From IMG/VR virus record IMGVR_UViG_3300020138_000006, positions 16,880 to 80,879 of that record: a stretch of DNA of 64,000 bases; one strand, given 5' to 3'. The stretch's first letter is position 1; each line of letters opens with the position of its first letter. This document shows, piece by piece, positions 38,626 to 52,947 of this stretch. The translations under genes and the position numbers were made by a program. Under the pieces are notes generated by a model. It was not told where the DNA came from, searched no databases, and worked only from the letters and a program-made list of their open reading frames with translations. Origin of the DNA: a virus. Its lineage: Duplodnaviria; Caudoviricetes.

Positions 38626-40311
38626 TCACGCGGCGTGATGACGCAGGTCAAGCAACTGAGACACCGTGTGGATAACGGCGAAGTCCCCCTCCGGACACGA
38701 CTTATCCACACCACCCGAGGCCAGGGCTTCCGCGAGGAGGCTCTGGCCTTCGTGGTTGTAGATGAGGCGCAGTCCGAGGCCGGCGTAGACCTCGGCCTTC
38801 CGCTCGGGGGTCGCCGTGCGCAGCAGGCCAGCCATGCCACCCACCCGCTCGATGAGCTCGGCCACCTGCTCGGCCGAGAGGGCGTCCTGGGGGCACGACG
38901 TGTCGGCGATGCGCCGCTTCAGATCAGCCACCTGCGCCTCACGCTCCGCCAGCGCCTTCGTGATGGCGTCGGAGATGGTGCCGGATTCGATGACGGACAC
39001 CAGGTTAGAGACCTTGTCCTGGGCGTCCCGGAGATGCTTGCGCAGGAGGCCGAGCCCTGCTGGTGGCTGTGCAACCTCCTGCGTGGAGGCCAGCCACTCG
39101 GGGTCAGCCAGGGTGTTGACGATCCAGTCGTCGACGACCTTCTCCAGCCGGTCGGCGCTCACCGAGACGGTCTTTGGGTGCTGAAGGTCAGCGGGAAGGG
39201 AGCGACGGCCCCGGGTGTCGCAGCGGTAGAGGACTCCCCAGGGGCGCTTCTCTGCCTGCATCCGGTGCTCGCACGCGGCGCAGTAAAGCATCCCGCGCAT
39301 CGGGTAGGTGTTGACGGTGGTGCGTGGCTTGCGGCTCCCGGGTGCGCCAGGGTGCGCGAGACGGTCTTGCACGGCGGCGATGGTCTGTTCGTCCACGAGG
39401 GCTTCGTGCGTGCGCTCAGCGGGCCGTACCCAGCCTTCCTGGCCCTTCCAGCGCATCCGCGTCTCGTACCCGGCGGCGATGTCGTCGAGGTCCAGGAGTC
39501 GCTCGAACTTCTCCTGCTTCCCCCAGACGCGGGTGCCGGAGTAGGTGGGGTTGGCGAGGATGGCCCGCACGGCGCTGTGCGACCAGCCTCGGGGGTCCCG
39601 GTGGGAGTTACGGGCCCGGTCGTGCTGGGACGGGGATGGGATGCCTTCGGCGGTCAACAGGTCGGCGATCCCACGGAAGCCTGTGCCGGCGATGTAGAGG
39701 TCGAAGATGCGCGTCACGACGGTGGACGTGACTGGGTCCGGCGCGAGCTTGTGTGCGCGCTGCCCGGAGGCGGCCTTGGCTGGGTTCGGGTGGGGCCCGG
39801 CGTCGACGAGCATGTACCCGTAGGGTGGGCGACCGCCGAGGTGCCGATCGGTTGTGGCGGCGAGGGCTTCCATCGAGGCTCGGGTGCGGATGCGGATGCG
39901 GGAACGCTCGCCCTTCGCCATCCCGCCGAACATCGTCATCATCATCTCGTGCAGGTCGGAGTCGGGTTCGACGAGGCCTCCGACGTCGGGGATGAACAGC
40001 GAGACCCCGTGGTGGGTCAGCAGGGGGAACGTCAGGGAGAACTGGTTGCCGTAGAAGGCACGCTGGGGTTCTCCGACGACGACACCGTCGAACCGACGGT
40101 CAGCACGTGCTGCTTCCGCGAGGAGCTCGGCGGCTTGGGGGCGCCTCTTCCACGGGATGGAACGCGACTGCCCGATGTCGAAGAACTCGACGCTGACGGC
40201 ATGCCCGAGGGACCGTACGCAGTCCAGGGCTCGTCGGATCTGCCATTCGCGGGAGGCTTCGGGGTCCTGTGCGTCTTCCGTCGACACGCGGCCGTAGAAG
40301 GCGAGGTCCAT
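38626..40311 (-). CDS. int: Large serine recombinase (integrase)
   Basis: YGRVSTED catalytic Ser motif, recombinase domain (GGRPPYGY), Zn ribbon CAAC...YRC, coiled coil; 561 aa. Confidence 0.95.
   Translation of the reverse strand: MDLAFYGRVSTEDAQDPEASREWQIRRALDCVRSLGHAVSVEFFDIGQSRSIPWKRRPQAAELLAEAARADRRFDGVVVGEPQRAFYGNQFSLTFPLLTHHGVSLFIPDVGGLVEPDSDLHEMMMTMFGGMAKGERSRIRIRTRASMEALAATTDRHLGGRPPYGYMLVDAGPHPNPAKAASGQRAHKLAPDPVTSTVVTRIFDLYIAGTGFRGIADLLTAEGIPSPSQHDRARNSHRDPRGWSHSAVRAILANPTYSGTRVWGKQEKFERLLDLDDIAAGYETRMRWKGQEGWVRPAERTHEALVDEQTIAAVQDRLAHPGAPGSRKPRTTVNTYPMRGMLYCAACEHRMQAEKRPWGVLYRCDTRGRRSLPADLQHPKTVSVSADRLEKVVDDWIVNTLADPEWLASTQEVAQPPAGLGLLRKHLRDAQDKVSNLVSVIESGTISDAITKALAEREAQVADLKRRIADTSCPQDALSAEQVAELIERVGGMAGLLRTATPERKAEVYAGLGLRLIYNHEGQSLLAEALASGGVDKSCPEGDFAVIHTVSQLLDLRHHAA
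38666..38711. mobile_element. Putative attP within integrase 3' end
   Basis: 10-bp inverted repeat GTGTGGATAA/TTATCCACAC around AAGTCCCCCTCCGGACAC (38681-38698), which has tRNA 3'-end architecture; symmetry centre CC at 38688-38689. Confidence 0.78.
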
Positions 40312-41346: not shown

Positions 41347-41387
41347 AAAGCGCCCCACCGCCGTTCGATCTGGCGGTGGGGCGCTTT
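41347..41387. terminator. Bidirectional terminator at convergence of the two arms
   Basis: 16-bp perfect stem AAAGCGCCCCACCGCC / GGCGGTGGGGCGCTTT. Confidence 0.85.
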
Positions 41388-42703: not shown

Positions 42704-42921
42704 CCCTTCTCTCGGGCGAGGTTCATCACGGCCTCGACGATCGGGCCGGTATCGATGTCCGGGGCCGCGTTGTCGATCGCCTCGGCGATCTCCTCACGGA
42801 CCCTCTTGCGCCGCCGCAGCGCGGCGGTGTGCTTGAAGGTCGGGAACCTCTCCTCGACCAAGTCTTCCGTCCACTCGGTGGACGAAGGGACGATCCCCGC
42901 GTTGAACGGCTCGCGGCCCAT
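42694..42921 (-). CDS. Hypothetical protein
   Basis: 75 aa, coupled to ruvB. Confidence 0.65.
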   Translation of the reverse strand: MGREPFNAGIVPSSTEWTEDLVEERFPTFKHTAALRRRKRVREEIAEAIDNAAPDIDTGPIVEAVMNLAREKGWK

Positions 42922-43937
42922 CAGTCGGCCGCCAGTTCCATCGCGCGATCGAGACCCTCAGGGGTGAGCTCCCGGCCCTGAGCGCAGATCCGGATGTACC
43001 CCTTCTGCAGGAGCAGCTTCTCGGTGTGACGCGGGAACGTCGGCTCACCGAGCGCCTGTGCGATCGTCTTCTCGCCGGCACGTCCTGACGGGGAGATCGC
43101 CAGGACACTGAGGAACTCCTGCGCGGTGCGGTCGAGACCGTCGTGCGTCAGCTTCGACCAGGCGAACATCTTGTCCATCGGGTAGCAGTTCGTCACCCAG
43201 GAGTCGACCGGCTGCGGGTAGTCGAGGATCGAGTCCCGCAGGATCCGGACGAGCTGGGTGATGACGCGAGGGTTCTTGTTCGACGCCGAGACGATCGCCT
43301 CACGGTTGAACTCGCCAGGCGGCTGCAGCCCGACCTCGCGGAACAGCCGACGGCCCATGAGGTCGACGATCTTGTCGGCCTCCTCGTCCGTGTACGACTC
43401 CAGTACGGGCTTCACCGTGAACCTGGACAGCACCGCCTCGGGCAGCTTCTGCGCGTCGGTCGTCGCCCCGATCACCGTGACCTTCGGGACGGAGTGCACA
43501 CCGGCGGGTGTGACGATGACGCCGTCCTGGAGGAACGACAGGAGCCACTCGGACTTGGCGCGACCGCCCGAGACCATGAGGTGGATCTCGTCGAGGAAGA
43601 GGATGTCGCCGTCCTGCATGGCGCTGAGGGCGCGCAGTGCGTCGTTGACGTCGACGGCGCCCTGGAGCTCGGCCAGGCCGACGTCCAGGTCCTGTGCGAT
43701 GAGTCGCACGAGCGCGGACTTGCCGATGCCGGCCTGGCCGGAGGCGATCAGCGTGTGGTCCATGCGGGTCTTGCGGATCTTCGCGGACCGTGCTGCCGCT
43801 CGCAGGAAGGCCTTCGCCTCGGACTGTCCGACGTAGGCGTCCCAGGTGCGGGGGTAGTCGGTGCCGTCGAAGAGGGCGTCGCCACGCTTGACCGTGGACG
43901 CTGCTCGCGCCGCGAGGCGCTCTCGCATGCTCGCCAT
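42921..43937 (-). CDS. ruvB: RuvB-like Holliday junction branch-migration AAA+ ATPase
   Basis: YVGQ, DHTL, GQAGIGKS, FLDEIH, IGATT, SRF, NPR, GLD...LLQKGYI....GRELT across the full length. Confidence 0.88.
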   Translation of the reverse strand: MASMRERLAARAASTVKRGDALFDGTDYPRTWDAYVGQSEAKAFLRAAARSAKIRKTRMDHTLIASGQAGIGKSALVRLIAQDLDVGLAELQGAVDVNDALRALSAMQDGDILFLDEIHLMVSGGRAKSEWLLSFLQDGVIVTPAGVHSVPKVTVIGATTDAQKLPEAVLSRFTVKPVLESYTDEEADKIVDLMGRRLFREVGLQPPGEFNREAIVSASNKNPRVITQLVRILRDSILDYPQPVDSWVTNCYPMDKMFAWSKLTHDGLDRTAQEFLSVLAISPSGRAGEKTIAQALGEPTFPRHTEKLLLQKGYIRICAQGRELTPEGLDRAMELAAD

Positions 43938-45444: not shown

Positions 45445-46905
45445 CTACGTCTGCCGCATGATGTCGCGGACCTGGGAGACGTCCGTCAGGTCCGCGACCG
45501 TCCGAACGTCGTCAGAGAGCTTCGCGAGCATGTCCGGGCGCCCGCCCCACCCGGAAGTGACGTAGACGCCGTACACGTGCACAGACAAGCGCTTGCGGGT
45601 CTCGTTCCACTCGTCGAGGAACGAGATGTTGCCGCCGTCGCCGTCGGTGATGAACACGATGTCCGGGCGGGACGTGCTCGACTCCTTGACGATGTCCAGG
45701 GCCCGCCGCAGCGGCTTGTTGAACTGCGTGCCGCCGTTGATGAAGCCCTCGGCCATGTCGAGGACATGGTCACGGACCATGCGCCCGCCCGGGAAGGAGA
45801 ACTCGCGGAGCTGGTTGTGGTCGCTGCCGAACCCGATGTAGTGGAAGTCGCGCTTCTGACGACCGGCCTGGTCGAGCAGGGCGAGAGACAGGCCCTTGGC
45901 CCACATCTCACCCGCGCCACTCATCGAGCCGGACTCGTCCGCGACGACCACGATCGGACCCTTGCCCTCCCGCTCCCTGCCGCGCAGCTCCTTGACAAGG
46001 AGCCCGCGATCGACGAAGCGACGCCAGAAGTCGTCCTCCGTCTCCGGGGTTGCGAGGTTGACCATCTCCTGTGTCGTCAGACGCATGAGGTCGTCCCCGA
46101 GCTCGACACCGACCGTCTCATCGGCGCCGTCCGTGGAGCGGCGTCGGTACTCGGCTGACGCCAGCGCACGGAAGGCGCCGATGAGAGAGGCGAACTTGCG
46201 GAGCTTGTCGCTGGACAGTCGCTTCGCGAGCGCTGCCCGGTCGGCGAAGTTCATCCGTTGCAGGTCGCCCGCGTCGACCCCGTACGAGCTTGCGGCCTGC
46301 TGCTGCTCGTCGAGCTCCTTCTCGGCGTCGTTGATGGCCCTGCGCAGCCCGCTGCGGCTCGCTGCCGACTGCGCCTGCGCCTGCTCCTGAAGATCCTCCA
46401 GGGCCTGTTGGGCCTCCTGGGCCGCCTGGTCGGCAGCCTCCTGCTCCTCCTCGGAGGTCGCGTTGTCGGCTGCCTCGCGAGCGGCCTCGACGGCCTCCTG
46501 AGCCGCCTTGGCCCGTTCGCGGAGCTCGCCAGCACGCTCCAGGGCATCCCTGAGCGCCGGCTCCAGCGCGAGGAGTCCCGCCGCCGAACCGTAGTTGTCC
46601 GAGACGGTGTACTCCCGCAGTCGCTCCAGCTCCGGCAACGAGGCGATGTCCTCGGCCACCTGTCGGTTCGGCAGGTGGGTCGCCTTCATCTCCTCGGGCG
46701 ACCGAAGGGATGGCCCCCGCTTGGCCAGGAGCTGGAAGACGTCGTGCGCGAAGTCCTCCGCGTAGTCGTACTTCGCTTGCAGGCCCTTGACCGTGTCGTT
46801 GAGCTTCTCGGACTGTTCACGGACCTCGTCCCACATCGCCCGGTCGAACCGGTCGGTGGGGACGGCGTCCGTGTGCTCCTGCTCCGGGTCGAAGAACCCC
46901 CACAC
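45445..46905 (-). CDS. VWA-domain protein (ViaA/CoxE-like)
   Basis: GTG 46905; MIDAS DESGSMSG, GGTQF, DIVFITDG; N-terminal coiled coil. Confidence 0.88.
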   Translation of the reverse strand: MWGFFDPEQEHTDAVPTDRFDRAMWDEVREQSEKLNDTVKGLQAKYDYAEDFAHDVFQLLAKRGPSLRSPEEMKATHLPNRQVAEDIASLPELERLREYTVSDNYGSAAGLLALEPALRDALERAGELRERAKAAQEAVEAAREAADNATSEEEQEAADQAAQEAQQALEDLQEQAQAQSAASRSGLRRAINDAEKELDEQQQAASSYGVDAGDLQRMNFADRAALAKRLSSDKLRKFASLIGAFRALASAEYRRRSTDGADETVGVELGDDLMRLTTQEMVNLATPETEDDFWRRFVDRGLLVKELRGREREGKGPIVVVADESGSMSGAGEMWAKGLSLALLDQAGRQKRDFHYIGFGSDHNQLREFSFPGGRMVRDHVLDMAEGFINGGTQFNKPLRRALDIVKESSTSRPDIVFITDGDGGNISFLDEWNETRKRLSVHVYGVYVTSGWGGRPDMLAKLSDDVRTVADLTDVSQVRDIMRQT

Positions 46906-46906
46906 G

Positions 46907-48058
46907 TCAGAACTCCTTGACGGAGTCGACCGGGATGCCGAGGTAGCCGAGGGCAACGGCTCGGATGTCGCGGACGACGACCTTGACCTGCTTGGCCGTC
47001 ACGGAGTCGGGGGGGAGCTTGTCAGCCTTCTGCCACAGGAGCGTGGCCTTCCCGTTGGCCTCGGTGGCAGCCCCGAGGAGCTTGTCGCTGGCCTCGCCCT
47101 TGCGGGCCTTCAGGTTGGCCAGGATCTCGTTGGCGTCGTCGAGTAGCTCCAGAGCCTCCTGCTCGACAGGAGCGGCGACCCCGAGGATCAGACGCTGGAC
47201 CTTCTTGATCTGCTCCAGGTCCTCCCAGAGCGTGTGCTGCAGGACGCCGAGGTCGTCGGCCTGCGTCTGGTTTCGGCCGGCGAGCCAGGCGTTCGCCTTG
47301 ACGACCGACAGGCTCTTGCGCAGGCGCCGGTCGGAGACCTGCATCCCAGCGTCGCGCAGCGCGTTGCGGACCGTCAGGAGTCCGTCGAGCGTGGCGGCGG
47401 ACACCGCGACCTCCTGGACCTCCTTGGTCGCGTCCTGGACCTCGGAGAAGAGCACCTTGGTGTGCCCGATGGCGCTGGGGTCCTGGTCCATCAGTGCGAT
47501 GAAGTTGGAGTCGGACGAGATGTAGTCCACCTGGACTCGCAGGAGCAGGCGGTCCCACATCGCCGCCGCGTCCTCGGACTCGCCTGCCGGGTGCTCGTTC
47601 GACGCGGCGAGGAGCGTGTGCAGCGGGATCGGCTGGGCGCTGCGGCCGTTCGCGACCTCGTGCTTGACGCGCTCGTTCGTCGCCGCGAGCAGGTCATGCC
47701 CGAGTGTGGGCGACGCCTTGCCGAGCTCGTCGAGGAACACGATGTCGGCCGTGGTGAGGAAGCCCTCGTCGCGTCGGCGGAACTCGCCCTTGTCGCGCAG
47801 GAGCGGCAGGTCCCACGGCCCGAGGACCGCCTGGTCCGGTCGGTTCTTGGACAGGAGCTGCTCGAAGTAGGTCGCTCCGACGAAGCGACCGGCGAACTCG
47901 CGGACGAGCTTGGACTTGCCGGTGCCCGGGGGGCCGATGATGAAGCCGTGCTCGCGACTGAGGACGGCGAGGAGCATGACGTCGATCGCCGACTCGCGCT
48001 CGTAGAACTGCTCGTTGAGCTCGGTGCGGATCTGGTTCAGCGTGCTGGCGGTGCTCAC
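46907..48058 (-). CDS. MoxR/RavA-like AAA+ ATPase
   Basis: FYERE, GPPGTGKS, VFLDE.GKA, AASNE, DRLLLR. Confidence 0.9.
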   Translation of the reverse strand: MSTASTLNQIRTELNEQFYERESAIDVMLLAVLSREHGFIIGPPGTGKSKLVREFAGRFVGATYFEQLLSKNRPDQAVLGPWDLPLLRDKGEFRRRDEGFLTTADIVFLDELGKASPTLGHDLLAATNERVKHEVANGRSAQPIPLHTLLAASNEHPAGESEDAAAMWDRLLLRVQVDYISSDSNFIALMDQDPSAIGHTKVLFSEVQDATKEVQEVAVSAATLDGLLTVRNALRDAGMQVSDRRLRKSLSVVKANAWLAGRNQTQADDLGVLQHTLWEDLEQIKKVQRLILGVAAPVEQEALELLDDANEILANLKARKGEASDKLLGAATEANGKATLLWQKADKLPPDSVTAKQVKVVVRDIRAVALGYLGIPVDSVKEF

Positions 48059-49175: not shown

Positions 49176-50075
49176 TCAGTAGACGGGAAGGGCGAGGAGC
49201 TGGTCGACCGTCGCCGCTGTGAGCGGGAGGTCTGTGCGCTCGCCCTTGAAGACGGCCATGCGAAGCTTGTTGTCGAAGGTGCGGTTGAGTGCGTGGATCT
49301 CCACGGGGAACATCTCGCCGTTGTCCAGCCGGCCTCGAAGCTGGTCCTCCTGCCGGGAGTCCCAGCCGGTGCCGACGCGGCCGATGGGGACCGGCCCGTC
49401 GTAACCCATGACGGCCAACTCGATCGCGAGACCCTTGCGAGCCTCCTTCGCGTAGCCGAGTGCGATGGCGGTCAGTGACCGGACAGTCTTGAACTTGACC
49501 CAGGACTCGGCTCGCTTCCCGGGCAGGTAGATGCCGTTGCGCATCTTGCAGATGATGCCCTCGCCGCCGTCGCTGACGACCTGCTGCCAGAGGTCGAGGA
49601 TCGCTCCGGACTGCTTGATCGGTCGGATGTTGCGACGTCGTCCAATGACGTTGCGCATCAGCAGGTGCCGAGTGCGCAGCGGCTGCTCCATGAGGGAGTT
49701 GCCACCGGCCATCAGCAGGTCGAACGCCACGAAGTAGCACGGGTTGGCCTTGGCGGCCATCTTGAAGCCGCCGGTCTGCTTGTCTCGTGTGGCGACGGTC
49801 GAGAACAGCCCGTCACGCGCGACGAGCTCGCCGTCGAGGACGAGCGAGCCCGGGAGTCGGAGGTTGTGCAGCTCGGGAAACTTCTCGGTGATCTCCTTGC
49901 CGTTCCGGTTGTAGAGACGGTTCAAGCCACCCTCCGCGTAGAGGATGGCTCGGATTCCATCGAGCTTTTCTTCGGCCACCCAGTCCTTCCGGGAGGCGAG
50001 CTCGGTGAGCAGGATCGGTCTTCGGTTGCTCTGCCCGGTGCTGGGGACCGCTAGCATCGGGGGGATGGGCTTCAT
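49176..50075 (-). CDS. ATP-dependent DNA ligase (LigD/LigC ligase-domain type)
   Basis: PMLA, EEKLDG (adenylated Lys), LDGELV, FVAFDLL, EGIICK, Y.PGKR..SWVKFK, OB domain. Confidence 0.92.
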   Translation of the reverse strand: MKPIPPMLAVPSTGQSNRRPILLTELASRKDWVAEEKLDGIRAILYAEGGLNRLYNRNGKEITEKFPELHNLRLPGSLVLDGELVARDGLFSTVATRDKQTGGFKMAAKANPCYFVAFDLLMAGGNSLMEQPLRTRHLLMRNVIGRRRNIRPIKQSGAILDLWQQVVSDGGEGIICKMRNGIYLPGKRAESWVKFKTVRSLTAIALGYAKEARKGLAIELAVMGYDGPVPIGRVGTGWDSRQEDQLRGRLDNGEMFPVEIHALNRTFDNKLRMAVFKGERTDLPLTAATVDQLLALPVY

Positions 50076-50079
50076 CGGT

Positions 50080-50160
50080 TCAGTCCCGGGCCATCAGCCA
50101 GAAGCACCAGGCGGCGAGTGCGCAGTAGCCGAGGATCACGACTGCCTTGGGCCAGGTCAC
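50080..50160 (-). CDS. Small membrane peptide
   Basis: MTWPKAVVILGYCALAAWCFWLMARD, GTGA-coupled. Confidence 0.5.
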   Translation of the reverse strand: MTWPKAVVILGYCALAAWCFWLMARD

Positions 50161-50351
50161 GTCAGCACCTCCCACTTGCTCAGGAGCCGCTGCACGCGGT
50201 GCAGCTCGGTGATCGGCACCATGTAGTGCGACGGGACGAACATCGGTCGGCCCTCCTGCACGATGCCGTTGTGGACGGCGATGATGATCGGAACCGTCTC
50301 CTCCTGCGGCTCGGTGAGCTCGGAGATGTCGTCTGGAGCCTCGTCGGACAT
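50157..50351 (-). CDS. Hypothetical protein
   Basis: 64 aa, AAGGAGG RBS. Confidence 0.65.
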   Translation of the reverse strand: MSDEAPDDISELTEPQEETVPIIIAVHNGIVQEGRPMFVPSHYMVPITELHRVQRLLSKWEVLT

Positions 50352-50354
50352 GTT

Positions 50355-50513
50355 TCAGACCTCCTTCGATCGTCGCTGCCGGTCCGCGAGTCGGGACTGG
50401 CAGGCGGGTTCGTTGCAGACGTGCGCGACGATGCGCGCCTCGTTCGCGGGGATGTAGATGGCGACCTTGGTCAGCGGGCGCTGGACCGTGCCGCAGAAGT
50501 AGCACTGAGTCAT
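50355..50513 (-). CDS. Small zinc-binding protein
   Basis: ATG 50513; CYFC...HVCNEPAC. Confidence 0.6.
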   Translation of the reverse strand: MTQCYFCGTVQRPLTKVAIYIPANEARIVAHVCNEPACQSRLADRQRRSKEV

Positions 50514-50698
50514 GAGCGCTTCACCTGGATCCAGCAGTCGTAGAAGGGCGCCGACGATGAACCGTCGGTGTAGTGCCAAACGATCTTGCCGACCCGCGCA
50601 GTGGACACGTGCGACACGACCGCGATGTCCTCTCCGACGGAGACGAGGATGTCGCCCGCACGAGCCTTCGAGGCTCGGATCGTGATGAGCGGACTCAT
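50510..50698 (-). CDS. Hypothetical protein
   Basis: 62 aa, coupled. Confidence 0.6.
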   Translation of the reverse strand: MSPLITIRASKARAGDILVSVGEDIAVVSHVSTARVGKIVWHYTDGSSSAPFYDCWIQVKRS

Positions 50699-51474
50699 GC
50701 CGCCACCACCGCTCGGAGCTTCGCCAGCAGATCGTCGACGTCGGACGTCGGCAGGGCTACGTCATCGGCCCGTGCGACGACCTCGCGACCCTTCAGGCGC
50801 TCGGCCATACGGGCGTCCGTGTCGTCGAGGTAGGACGACGGGTCGTAGTCAGTGACCGAGGACGGCATCGCGAGGATCTGCTCGGCGAGCGAGACCATCT
50901 CGGGGTTCTCGGTGAGCTCCAGCTCGGGAGCCTCCCGCAGCGTCGACCCGCCGGTGCGCTCCTGGAAGACGAGGACCTGGCCGACTGCGCGCAGGCGGAA
51001 CTGCCCCAGCGCCGACCGGGGGGTCCAGCGGGCCATGAAGGCCGTCTCGGGGTGGGAGCGGACGAGCGCGAGGAGCGTCGCGTACGTCGTCTCGTGACCC
51101 TTCTCGGGGACGAGGAAGTACGTCTTCTCCCCGACGCCGGTCAGCACCTCCACCTGCTCGGCCGGGTGCGCGAGCACGTTCGCTCGCTTCTTGAACTCGG
51201 CACTGACCTCGGTGAGGACCTTCTCGTCCTCTTCGTTCAGGACGACGAGCCCGCCGTCGACCGGACGAGCCTTCTTCAGCTGCTGGTAGGGGACCTCGCC
51301 GCAGTGCGGGCACACCCTCGGCTGGCGGATCTGCACGGCCTCGTGGCCGGTGTCGCAGACGGTGACGTTCGTGGCCGACTTCGGCCGGCTCTCCACGGCG
51401 GAGAACATCGAGACGGACGCGGAGATGAGTCCGAAGTTCAGGGCGACGCCGGAGGCGACGCTACGGGGTGCCAT
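50695..51474 (-). CDS. ku: Ku-like DNA end-binding protein
   Basis: LNFGLISASV.MFSA, IRQPRVCPHCGEV.Y..L.K, TYFL.P, Y..LL, LA.QI, YDPS.Y.D, V.DLLA.L. Confidence 0.85.
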   Translation of the reverse strand: MAPRSVASGVALNFGLISASVSMFSAVESRPKSATNVTVCDTGHEAVQIRQPRVCPHCGEVPYQQLKKARPVDGGLVVLNEEDEKVLTEVSAEFKKRANVLAHPAEQVEVLTGVGEKTYFLVPEKGHETTYATLLALVRSHPETAFMARWTPRSALGQFRLRAVGQVLVFQERTGGSTLREAPELELTENPEMVSLAEQILAMPSSVTDYDPSSYLDDTDARMAERLKGREVVARADDVALPTSDVDDLLAKLRAVVAA

Positions 51475-51491: not shown

Positions 51492-51683
51492 TCAGTCGCT
51501 CTTGATGACGATGCGGTAGATCTCGTCGAGCAGCTCGGTCGCGTAGGTCTCGTGCTCGCTGAGGACCTCGTCGAGCTTGGTGAGCTCGGCCCCGCCGGTG
51601 TAGTCGTACATGTTCGCCGTCCAGGGCTCTTCGGTTTCGGTGGCCCTGTCGTTGTCGTCCACGACGATCTCGTAGTACGTCAT
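51492..51683 (-). CDS. Small acidic protein
   Basis: ATG 51683, 63 aa. Confidence 0.65.
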   Translation of the reverse strand: MTYYEIVVDDNDRATETEEPWTANMYDYTGGAELTKLDEVLSEHETYATELLDEIYRIVIKSD

Positions 51684-52210
51684 GGCAGCACCACGTCGTG
51701 CACGTTGGTGATGTCCTTGGCGGTGTGCAGGTAGCACCCCTTCACAGCGCGGGCCGTGATGTAGTCCGGGGGTGTGTGCTCCAGTACCGTCACGATCTGG
51801 TCCGGGACACCCATCACCGTCGCCCGGAAGCGGGTGCCGGGCTCGGTCGGGATGGGCACCGGGGCAGGCTTGCGCTCCGTCAGCTCGTCCAGACGGGCGA
51901 GCATCGCGTCCAGGAGCGGACCGTCGGCGTCGTAGCACGGCGTGAACGCGGGGCGCTTGGCAACCTTGTGCCACGCGGCAATGCGTTCGTCCACCTCCGG
52001 GGCAGGCTTGTGTGCGCGGACGCGAATCCAGGAGTGGCGAAGCCCGCGGGGGGTGCGGACGGCCCACCCGGACACGTACAGGTAGCCAAGCTCGTCCGCC
52101 TTCACCTCACGCCACCCCTTGACCGGCGCCCACTCCACGTCCGGGTTCGCCCGCACGTCGATCTTCACCAGGTCGCCCAGCTTGATCTTGCTCAGATCGA
52201 TGTCGGTCAT
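51680..52210 (-). CDS. Hypothetical protein
   Basis: ATG 52210, 176 aa. Confidence 0.65.
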   Translation of the reverse strand: MTDIDLSKIKLGDLVKIDVRANPDVEWAPVKGWREVKADELGYLYVSGWAVRTPRGLRHSWIRVRAHKPAPEVDERIAAWHKVAKRPAFTPCYDADGPLLDAMLARLDELTERKPAPVPIPTEPGTRFRATVMGVPDQIVTVLEHTPPDYITARAVKGCYLHTAKDITNVHDVVLP

Positions 52211-52310
52211 CGGCAGCACCCGTCGTTCGGGACGACCGCCAGCGCGTCGTACGCGATGCAGGTCTTCTTCAAGAGCAGTCTCCTTTGTTCGGTGTGTGGG
52301 CATGGCGAAG

Positions 52311-52435
52311 TGCTCCCGCCAGGAGTCGAACCCGGGATCGCCTGGATAACCGCGGTGGGCAGGGCCCGGTGCAGGTCCAGGTGCTCTTCTCTCTGCGCGC
52401 CGTAACGCGCGAGCTATCCGTTGAGCTACGGGAGC
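52311..52435 (-). ncRNA. tRNA-Arg-derived RNA with 28-nt D-loop and 24-nt anticodon-loop insertions
   Basis: Acceptor GCTCCCG/CGGGAGC+A, D-stem GCTC/GAGC, anticodon stem CCTGG/CCAGG, variable CGATC, T-arm CCGGG-TTCGACT-CCTGG; 73+52=125 nt. Confidence 0.8.
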
Positions 52436-52680
52436 GCACGAGGCATCGGGACGCCGTCACAACATCCCTACTCGCGAGGGTGACGCCTCGCTCTCACACA
52501 GGCCGGCCGGTCAAGTGTGAATGTTCCTCGTGGAGCCGATGCGCGAAACGCCCTGAGGCGCACGTGCTGCCATGGGGTCGACTCAACTCCCCACCCCGAC
52601 CCCGGAGGGTCGGACGCTCTCGGCCTAAGGGGCTTCCCTCCGCAGAGGGGGCTGCCGAGACAGCTTGTTGTGTGCTTGGG

Positions 52681-52947
52681 CTAGACCGGCCGGGCCACCG
52701 CGAGGTTGCCCACGACGACCGACCCGGGATTGGCGTCCTTGATCGCCGACAGTGCCATCGGGTACGCCGACGTCGTCAGCTCGACCCAGTCGCACTCCCC
52801 GTAGAACAGGTCATCACGGCTCGTGGTGCTGGACATCGAGTAGGCGTTGGTCGGAAGGTTGTGCAGGTCCGGGTTCTGGATGGACCGAGGGGAGCGACCG
52901 GCGCGCTTCACCAGGTGCGCCCACTCGGGCGGGATGACAAGACTCAT
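52681..52947 (-). CDS. Hypothetical protein
   Basis: 88 aa, GAGGAGG RBS. Confidence 0.6.
   Translation of the reverse strand: MSLVIPPEWAHLVKRAGRSPRSIQNPDLHNLPTNAYSMSSTTSRDDLFYGECDWVELTTSAYPMALSAIKDANPGSVVVGNLAVARPV

Follow-up and report, generated by a model that had tools for sequence, protein, structure and literature searches.

At the locus described here a 125-nt tRNA-like element lies inside a 470-nt non-coding gap (52211–52680), between two genes encoding proteins of 88 and 176 amino acids, all on the minus strand. The window, by which we mean the whole 64,000-nt stretch of DNA analysed, corresponds to bases 16880–80879 of an 80,879-bp IMG/VR virus record with a completeness estimate of 97%. 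The virus is an uncultured, temperate actinophage of 81 kb (G+C ~67%) from ant metagenomes, with PHROG and tblastn matches that point to phages of Microbacterium, Gordonia and Mycobacterium; its genes include those for a large serine integrase, a full RuvB, a MoxR ATPase with a VWA partner, Ku and an ATP-dependent ligase of its own (38626–40311, 42921–43937, 45445–48058 and 49176–51474; minus strand). From ~38.6 kb onwards, those ORFs of the window that pass a filter for coding-type third-position GC are found mostly on this same strand. The region is identical, with zero differences, in contigs from three ant-metagenome sequencing runs (possibly representing the source samples), so that the tRNA-like element is not a one-off assembly error; within the element itself no variation is seen in contigs of the same samples, and a search of sequencing runs listed no RNA run containing its sequence.

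Following the minus strand from 5' to 3', the upstream gene (52681–52947; third-position GC of 0.90), whose 88-aa product has no Pfam or PHROG match, gives way to a pistol-ribozyme-like element (52589–52664), with the first helix of the latter (P1) starting 16 nt past the stop codon. A 153-nt spacer (52436–52588) then separates this from the tRNA-like element (52311–52435), after which a further 100 nt (52211–52310) lead to the start codon of the downstream gene (51680–52210), a 176-aa protein of no matched family whose gene call in the protein collection begins at ATG 52210. The spacer contains no convincing ORF or significant fold, the 158 nt counted from the predicted ribozyme cut (52593–52436) folding with a z-score of –0.54; both it and the 5' UTR were considered as structured RNAs in their own right and set aside, as their folds are not significant.

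The 100 nt on the 3' side of the element are in frame with a longer ORF, which apparently starts at ATG 52303, just 7 nt past the element. We judge the first 31 codons of this ORF to be non-coding, since the gene call begins at ATG 52210, the third-position GC of the extension is low (~47% by hand count, versus 0.81–0.95 in the minus-strand ORFs passing our filter), and contigs of kin from the same samples, which match the downstream gene, diverge at precisely its start codon (52210–52212) and do not carry the gap. Other small ORFs within the gap were likewise dismissed on their low third-position GC (hand count). A consensus scan of the region detects promoter-like sites on neither strand, and the minus strand also lacks any terminator-like site; the simplest assumption would be that the gap is co-transcribed with its flanking genes. 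We also rejected the idea of an attP site for a tRNA-targeting integrase, the phage enzyme being of the serine type and located 12 kb away.

The tRNA-like element and its two inserts

The element (52311–52435, minus strand) reads exactly as it had been transcribed in an earlier, sequence-only reading, both in its stems and in its length of 73 + 28 + 24 = 125 nt: a tRNA of normal size into which two additional segments have been built. Its acceptor stem (52435–52429 with 52318–52312) ends in a discriminator A (52311), with CCA not encoded, and stacks upon a T arm (CCGGG / UUCGACU / CCUGG, 52319–52335) that fits the Rfam tRNA consensus. The four stems of the cloverleaf—acceptor (7 bp), D (4 bp), anticodon (5 bp, or 6 if an A-U pair is included) and T (5 bp)—are complete, with 21/21 pairs formed, none of them non-standard and a single G-U, in the T stem; U8, A14, G18G19, A20, A21 and the UUCGACU T-loop are all kept, together with the U8-A14 and T54-A58 pairs. 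When constrained to a cloverleaf the RNA folds at –57.4 kcal/mol, within 0.4 kcal/mol of its minimum free energy of –57.8 kcal/mol.

With lax filters, the Rfam tRNA model (RF00005) aligns end to end (positions 1–71) at 39.7 bits, against a gathering cut-off of 29 (E = 8e-7 over the 801 nt searched), leaving two 31-nt gaps, one coinciding exactly with the D-loop and the other with the anticodon loop. A full-length match, with gaps at these two loops and nowhere else, tells us that the structure is real and far beyond chance. Routine annotation nevertheless passes it by, as had been anticipated: the whole window is free of tRNA and tmRNA calls by ARAGORN, and Rfam at its own default filters and gathering threshold finds nothing in the window or in the whole virus record, so that the element is hidden from both. 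The possibility of a tmRNA was ruled out, given a negative ARAGORN tmRNA search and no Rfam match.

The assignment of the frame to tRNA-Arg, including its identity base A20, has held up well. The same acceptor stem and start of the D arm, when sought across GTDB (one genome per prokaryotic species), fall in genes that ARAGORN calls as tRNA-Arg in 194 of 205 cases among the matches listed, these being tRNAs of normal length save for one 91-nt exception; furthermore, with both inserts taken out, the core shares up to 56/66 positions with real arginine tRNAs. It resembles canonical tRNA-Arg (RF00005) in its acceptor stem, D stem, GG, A20, A26, 5-nt variable loop, T arm and discriminator A, but differs in having no 7-nt anticodon loop, in its 28-nt D-loop hairpin, and at two tertiary positions. 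Against a 118-sequence tRNA-Arg consensus there is one difference at a well-conserved position, A46 (G in 94%), whilst the 15–48 pair is A·C, a combination without example among 120 real arginine tRNAs (G-C in 102, A-U in 14). Both changes map to the hinge region, beside the point at which the D-loop insert exits. The scaffold had earlier been described as intact; this stands for the stems, the GG and the T-loop, but not for A15·C48 and A46, and the frame is best described as arginine-type and nearly, but not fully, intact.

The first insert (52387–52414), 28 nt placed between A21 and G22 of the D-loop, folds under the cloverleaf constraint into a GC-rich hairpin of 9 bp, in which a single A bulges out and UACG forms the tetraloop, with AGAA coming after it; the hairpin is more stable than 98.6% of shuffled sequences. 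A hairpin had been proposed here, and is present, but this bulged 9-bp fold is better than the 5-bp GCGCG version originally drawn. The shorter fold also exposes an ‘arginine anticodon’, ACG, in its loop: we take this to be chance, as a U plus an arginine anticodon is expected in an estimated 1 in 10 random 6-nt loops, and the better fold places ACG within the UACG tetraloop. The second insert (52346–52376) is a 31-nt segment that replaces the 7-nt anticodon loop, folding so as to prolong the anticodon stem into an irregular hairpin: 4 bp, a 3 × 3 ACC/ACC internal loop, 4 bp and a CCU triloop. The stability of this fold is within chance (p ~0.06), 19% of genome windows being equally stable. 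Neither insert is a mobile repeat or a copy of other phage DNA, each being unique in the window.

In a decoding tRNA the anticodon loop has 7 nt, among them U33 and a purine at position 37, and the core has its tertiary pairs (the 15–48 Levitt pair and G46). Here there is instead a loop of 31 nt, as the sequence-only reading had recognised, and neither the Levitt pair nor G46 is present; the element is unable to decode. It could be argued that a functional tRNA might yet emerge if the two intervening sequences were removed post-transcriptionally. Cutting one segment from the 31-nt loop, however, gives a 7-nt loop with U33 in 0/8 ways, and the intron mode of ARAGORN offers parses that exclude one another (Gly-CCC with a 44-nt intron or, after removal of insert 1, Asn-GUU with G33). 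Self-splicing group I introns are far longer than these inserts, and to our knowledge the tRNA splicing endonuclease is absent from bacteria. As no single excision restores U33 and the intron parses conflict, a spliced, decoding tRNA is unlikely, and the earlier suggestion of a tRNA with two introns is not supported; we regard it as very improbable, with the precedents in its favour considered below.

A second alternative, which we view as somewhat doubtful, is that of a recently inactivated arginine tRNA gene: one whose decoding was abolished by two insertions, whose further decay is too young to show, and that has no selected function even if host enzymes trim the remnant. The A15·C48 pair and A46 are what one might look for in such a gene, as is an insert 2 whose fold is no better than chance, and the phage has no other tRNA (by ARAGORN in the window and by Rfam in the whole record). 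Set against this, all of the stem pairs and loop invariants are untouched, the 52 added nucleotides are confined to loops, insert 1 is a strong, UNCG-capped hairpin, and neither insert has the character of a repeat or of a copy of other phage DNA. Useless DNA is lost quickly from phage genomes, which also counts against a dead gene. The preserved stems had been put forward as an argument against a decaying pseudogene; the stems are indeed preserved, but with two tertiary deviations, an insert 2 that is not demonstrably structured, no homologue, and kin without the gap, the argument was overstated.

The pistol-ribozyme-like neighbour

The core of the pistol-ribozyme-like element (52589–52664, minus strand) is a match to Rfam RF02679 at 52632–52589, scoring 34.2 bits against a cut-off of 34.5 (0.3 bits under) and covering just positions 24–68 of the model (E = 4.9e-6 for the genome, or 0.016 for the window against all Rfam families). 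It spans P2, the conserved junction, P3 and the 2-nt GU junction, with every highly conserved (upper-case) base matched. The first 23 positions of the model are unaligned; immediately upstream of the core, at 52664–52651, sits the hairpin GCUG-UCUCGG-CAGC, whose loop is, by eye, a perfect 6-nt complement of the junction sequence CCGAGA, as expected for P1 and in a pseudoknot register that agrees with that of full-length pistols in IMG/VR. As this pairing is not scored by the Rfam model, it provides independent support for the assignment. The linker between P1 and P2 is atypical: 18 nt, consisting of a C, a 5-bp hairpin capped by UGCG (52649–52636) and AAG, where the canonical linker is short and of the (A/U)UAAA type in 5/6 of the IMG/VR pistols scoring above 45 bits. 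The predicted cut falls between 52594 and 52593.

We found no pistols in 151 sampled Actinomycetes genomes, control genomes being likewise without signal. By contrast with the single copy seen here, a 32-kb phage contig (IMGVR_UViG_3300048872_000006) contains at least five full pistols (L187, 520–2051; L191, 3836–3904), four of which start at, or no more than 2 nt from, the stops of consecutive small minus-strand genes, ~450–540 nt apart.

Self-cleaving motifs in such positions have been described before: clustered hammerheads flank genes of prophages, where they have been suggested to divide long phage transcripts into messages of gene length (PMC3088659). The present locus is similar to these ribozyme-punctuated operons (Perreault et al. 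2011, PMC3088659; Harris et al. 2015, PMC4604425) in having, amid a series of small genes, a same-orientation self-cleaving motif that comes directly behind a stop codon; it differs in that the motif is a single copy, has a hairpin in its P1–P2 linker, resides in an actinophage of 67% GC, and is followed by a tRNA-like element. The presence of such a neighbour, which had escaped the sequence-only reading, shifts the weight of interpretation towards RNA processing.

Relatives and analogues

Searches for relatives of the element were uniformly negative. BLAST against the 50,697 phage records of INPHARED, using the region, its 20-kb flank or the element alone, gives no homologue and short tRNA-type matches only; the flanking proteins (88-aa, 207-aa, 406-aa and Ku), when searched in IMG/VR, lead to no kin loci; pattern scans of IMG/VR for an arginine-type D arm plus D-loop insert return chance or unrelated matches only; and the same D-arm/insert pattern has no match in 401 sampled Actinomycetes genomes. 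A pattern scan of JGI metagenomes yields 51 matches; in the majority, a 5' piece of a tRNA precedes a complete tRNA, and there are some analogues and no homologue of the element among them.

In other phages, homologues of the downstream protein adjoin other genes directly, with no gap upstream. Taken with the kin contigs, this indicates that the present phage has gained all 470 nt of the gap. A singleton, with no homologue in IMG/VR, JGI metagenomes, INPHARED or the sampled Actinomycetes genomes and residing in a gap missing from its kin, is again consistent with a dead tRNA gene. Two metagenome contigs with a homologue of the downstream gene (of 53 and 32 kb) also show CRISPR-associated, Csf1 (faint) and RAMP (weak) Pfam matches (L004, 6459–8396; L006, 2585–4522), and may represent phage-borne type IV CRISPR-Cas.

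The analogues from the JGI scan are instructive as to what loop-expanded tRNA genes can look like. Locus L144 (461–557, plus strand) is a tRNA-Arg(UCU) gene with an encoded CCA and, at the same site in the D-loop as our insert 1, a 21-nt hairpin of 7 bp; it scores 56.6 bits with the Rfam tRNA model and is missed by ARAGORN. L139 (522–624, plus strand) and L155 are an identical arginine-type frame found in two metagenomes (Rfam tRNA, 57.2 bits), in which an extended helix of ~37 nt takes the place of the anticodon loop and, by reading, leaves no usable loop there. In L158 and L147, also by reading, arginine-type genes have inserts of 30–50 nt in the anticodon loop beside a readable anticodon; that of L147 (9162–9248, plus strand) is of arginine(UCU) type, with ~31 nt inserted next to the anticodon, is not called by ARAGORN, and lies within a tRNA array, a 13-kb stretch with 31 ARAGORN tRNAs. 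All of these are analogues and not homologues of the element. They show that loop-expanded arginine-type tRNA genes recur in nature, and ARAGORN missed every one tested.

The readable anticodons of L147 and L158 are amongst the few observations that speak for a spliced tRNA; the other comes from the ‘enigmatic introns’ reported as unexplained insertions in phage tRNAs (PMC6784885). The tRNA-type genes of these Lak megaphages (Devoto et al. 2019, PMC6784885) resemble the element in bearing short inserts with no known bacterial pathway for their removal; they have, however, been assigned both a tRNA type and an anticodon, and here no anticodon can be restored.

Proposed transcript processing and possible tRNA mimicry

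The reading we favour, tentatively and with a probability of roughly 0.4, is that of a non-decoding, tRNA-derived element excised by RNase P and 3' tRNA-processing enzymes, which together with the ribozyme would punctuate the transcript. An arginine tRNA ancestor would have lost its anticodon loop and gained a hairpin in its D-loop, whilst keeping those features that the processing enzymes are expected to read: the 7-bp acceptor stem on a canonical T arm, the elbow formed by G18G19 and the T-loop, and the discriminator A. Bacterial RNase P needs just the acceptor/T-arm stack and the elbow, the anticodon arm being dispensable; as the anticodon loop of the element is not restorable, what remains to it is recognition by shape. 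In a long message that the phage would transcribe from the minus strand, the element would be cut at its 5' end by host RNase P, between 52436 and 52435, and after 52311 by RNase Z or another 3' tRNA-processing enzyme. In combination with cleavage by the pistol-type ribozyme, these cuts would yield distinct messages for the 88-aa and 176-aa genes and free a stable, tRNA-shaped RNA of 125 nt, and might thereby benefit the phage.

A close parallel comes from plant mitochondria, where tRNA-like ‘t-elements’ direct cuts by RNase P and RNase Z at the ends of mRNAs (Forner et al. 2007, PMC1920247). As in those systems, there is a non-decoding tRNA shape within what would be a longer transcript and beside coding regions, likewise a proposed substrate of RNase P and RNase Z in making mRNA ends; the fold, the acceptor/T-arm stack, the location on the coding strand and the position between cistrons all correspond. 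Our element differs in belonging to a bacterial phage, in having a complete, four-arm frame that can be assigned to an isoacceptor family, with two added arms, and in being paired with a self-cleaving ribozyme. One would also look for a t-element to come up again, whether in further gaps or at the corresponding site of relatives, and neither is seen here: kin do not have the gap, and the gaps of the window hold no other tRNA-like or mini-tRNA element beyond one terminator-like hairpin, from which it follows that punctuation of this kind is not a general habit of the phage. As for the pairing with a ribozyme, phage tRNAs are described as being adjoined by HDV-like theta ribozymes (PMC10879173).

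Several points tell against the processing reading. Punctuation calls for the top half of a tRNA only, so that the retained D arm and the two added arms go unexplained. Related contigs would appear to express the downstream gene without any of the gap. The predicted ribozyme scores just under the Rfam cut-off, and its P1–P2 linker is atypical. Lastly, the base ahead of the predicted RNase P site is a C that is itself predicted to be paired, an arrangement that may slow cutting.

Much of what is superfluous to a processing signal would find a use in a trans-acting tRNA mimic, an alternative that we hold to be unlikely. Here the processed 125-nt RNA would accumulate, possibly gain CCA, and bind a protein that recognises tRNA shape or arginine identity—candidates being a tRNA-targeting defence toxin, ArgRS or a tRNA-modifying enzyme—with the two added arms giving specificity or barring entry to the ribosome. 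The elements of the full L-shape, including the D arm and A20, are kept though a processing signal has no need of them; besides this, the anticodon loop has been closed, and the D-loop bears in its variable part a further, stable hairpin that points outwards. Metagenome analogues exist for both modifications (L144 for the D-loop hairpin at the same site, L139/L155 for the conversion of the anticodon loop to an extended helix). No partner gene is evident, however: a scan of 20 neighbouring proteins found no tRNA-related enzyme, and the genome has no TROVE/Ro60 gene. Nor does the element have homologues, and an RNA lacking the anticodon loop would go unrecognised by anticodon nucleases. More specific still, and likewise unlikely, is a scheme in which the ribozyme and RNase P free a dedicated arginine-tRNA mimic from an early transcript, its anticodon deliberately closed and an arm added to its D-loop, for action in trans on some host or phage protein that reads tRNA shape (in soaking up a tRNA-directed defence enzyme, for instance); the element would then stand for an undescribed class of expanded, anticodon-less phage tRNA derivatives. 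Both processing signal and tRNA mimic had been raised in the sequence-only reading, and both would appear to be live readings still.

Mimics of this general type do exist in bacteria, in the form of YrlA RNAs handled by tRNA enzymes (PMC4201824). YrlA and other bacterial Y RNAs (Chen et al. 2014, PMC4201824) are, like the element, non-decoding, with a tRNA-like domain (in their case recognised by tRNA enzymes), and they also occur in some actinophages. YrlA adjoins a Ro60 (TROVE) gene and bears a Ro-binding motif, however, whereas the element has neither and ends at a normal acceptor stem. The MoxR-VWA genes of the phage had prompted us to consider a Ro60/YrlA system directly; we rejected this, as there is no TROVE gene, the 503-aa VWA protein has no PDB match to Ro, and the Ro-binding motif GNCGAA(N)G is absent from the gap.

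Were the element to be cut as proposed under the favoured, processing reading, it would constitute a bacterial-virus counterpart of organellar tRNA punctuation, sharing one gap with a self-cleaving ribozyme, and phages would be seen to employ host tRNA-processing enzymes and ribozymes side by side in shaping their messages. Were it instead to act in trans, it would join the few non-decoding tRNA mimics and have a bearing on phage–host conflicts over tRNA. The weight of either implication is moderate, coming as it would from a single, unconserved example read in DNA. Since tRNA-derived genes with loop inserts escape both ARAGORN and filtered Infernal, such elements are under-counted in phage genomes.

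The one hairpin noted above among the gaps of the window (41350–41385, plus strand) lies between convergent genes. Its 14-bp GC stem is closed by a loop, UUCGAUC, that resembles a T-loop, and the hairpin is bordered by a run of A and a run of T; overall it has the appearance of a bidirectional terminator, though formally it mimics an acceptor/T-arm minihelix.
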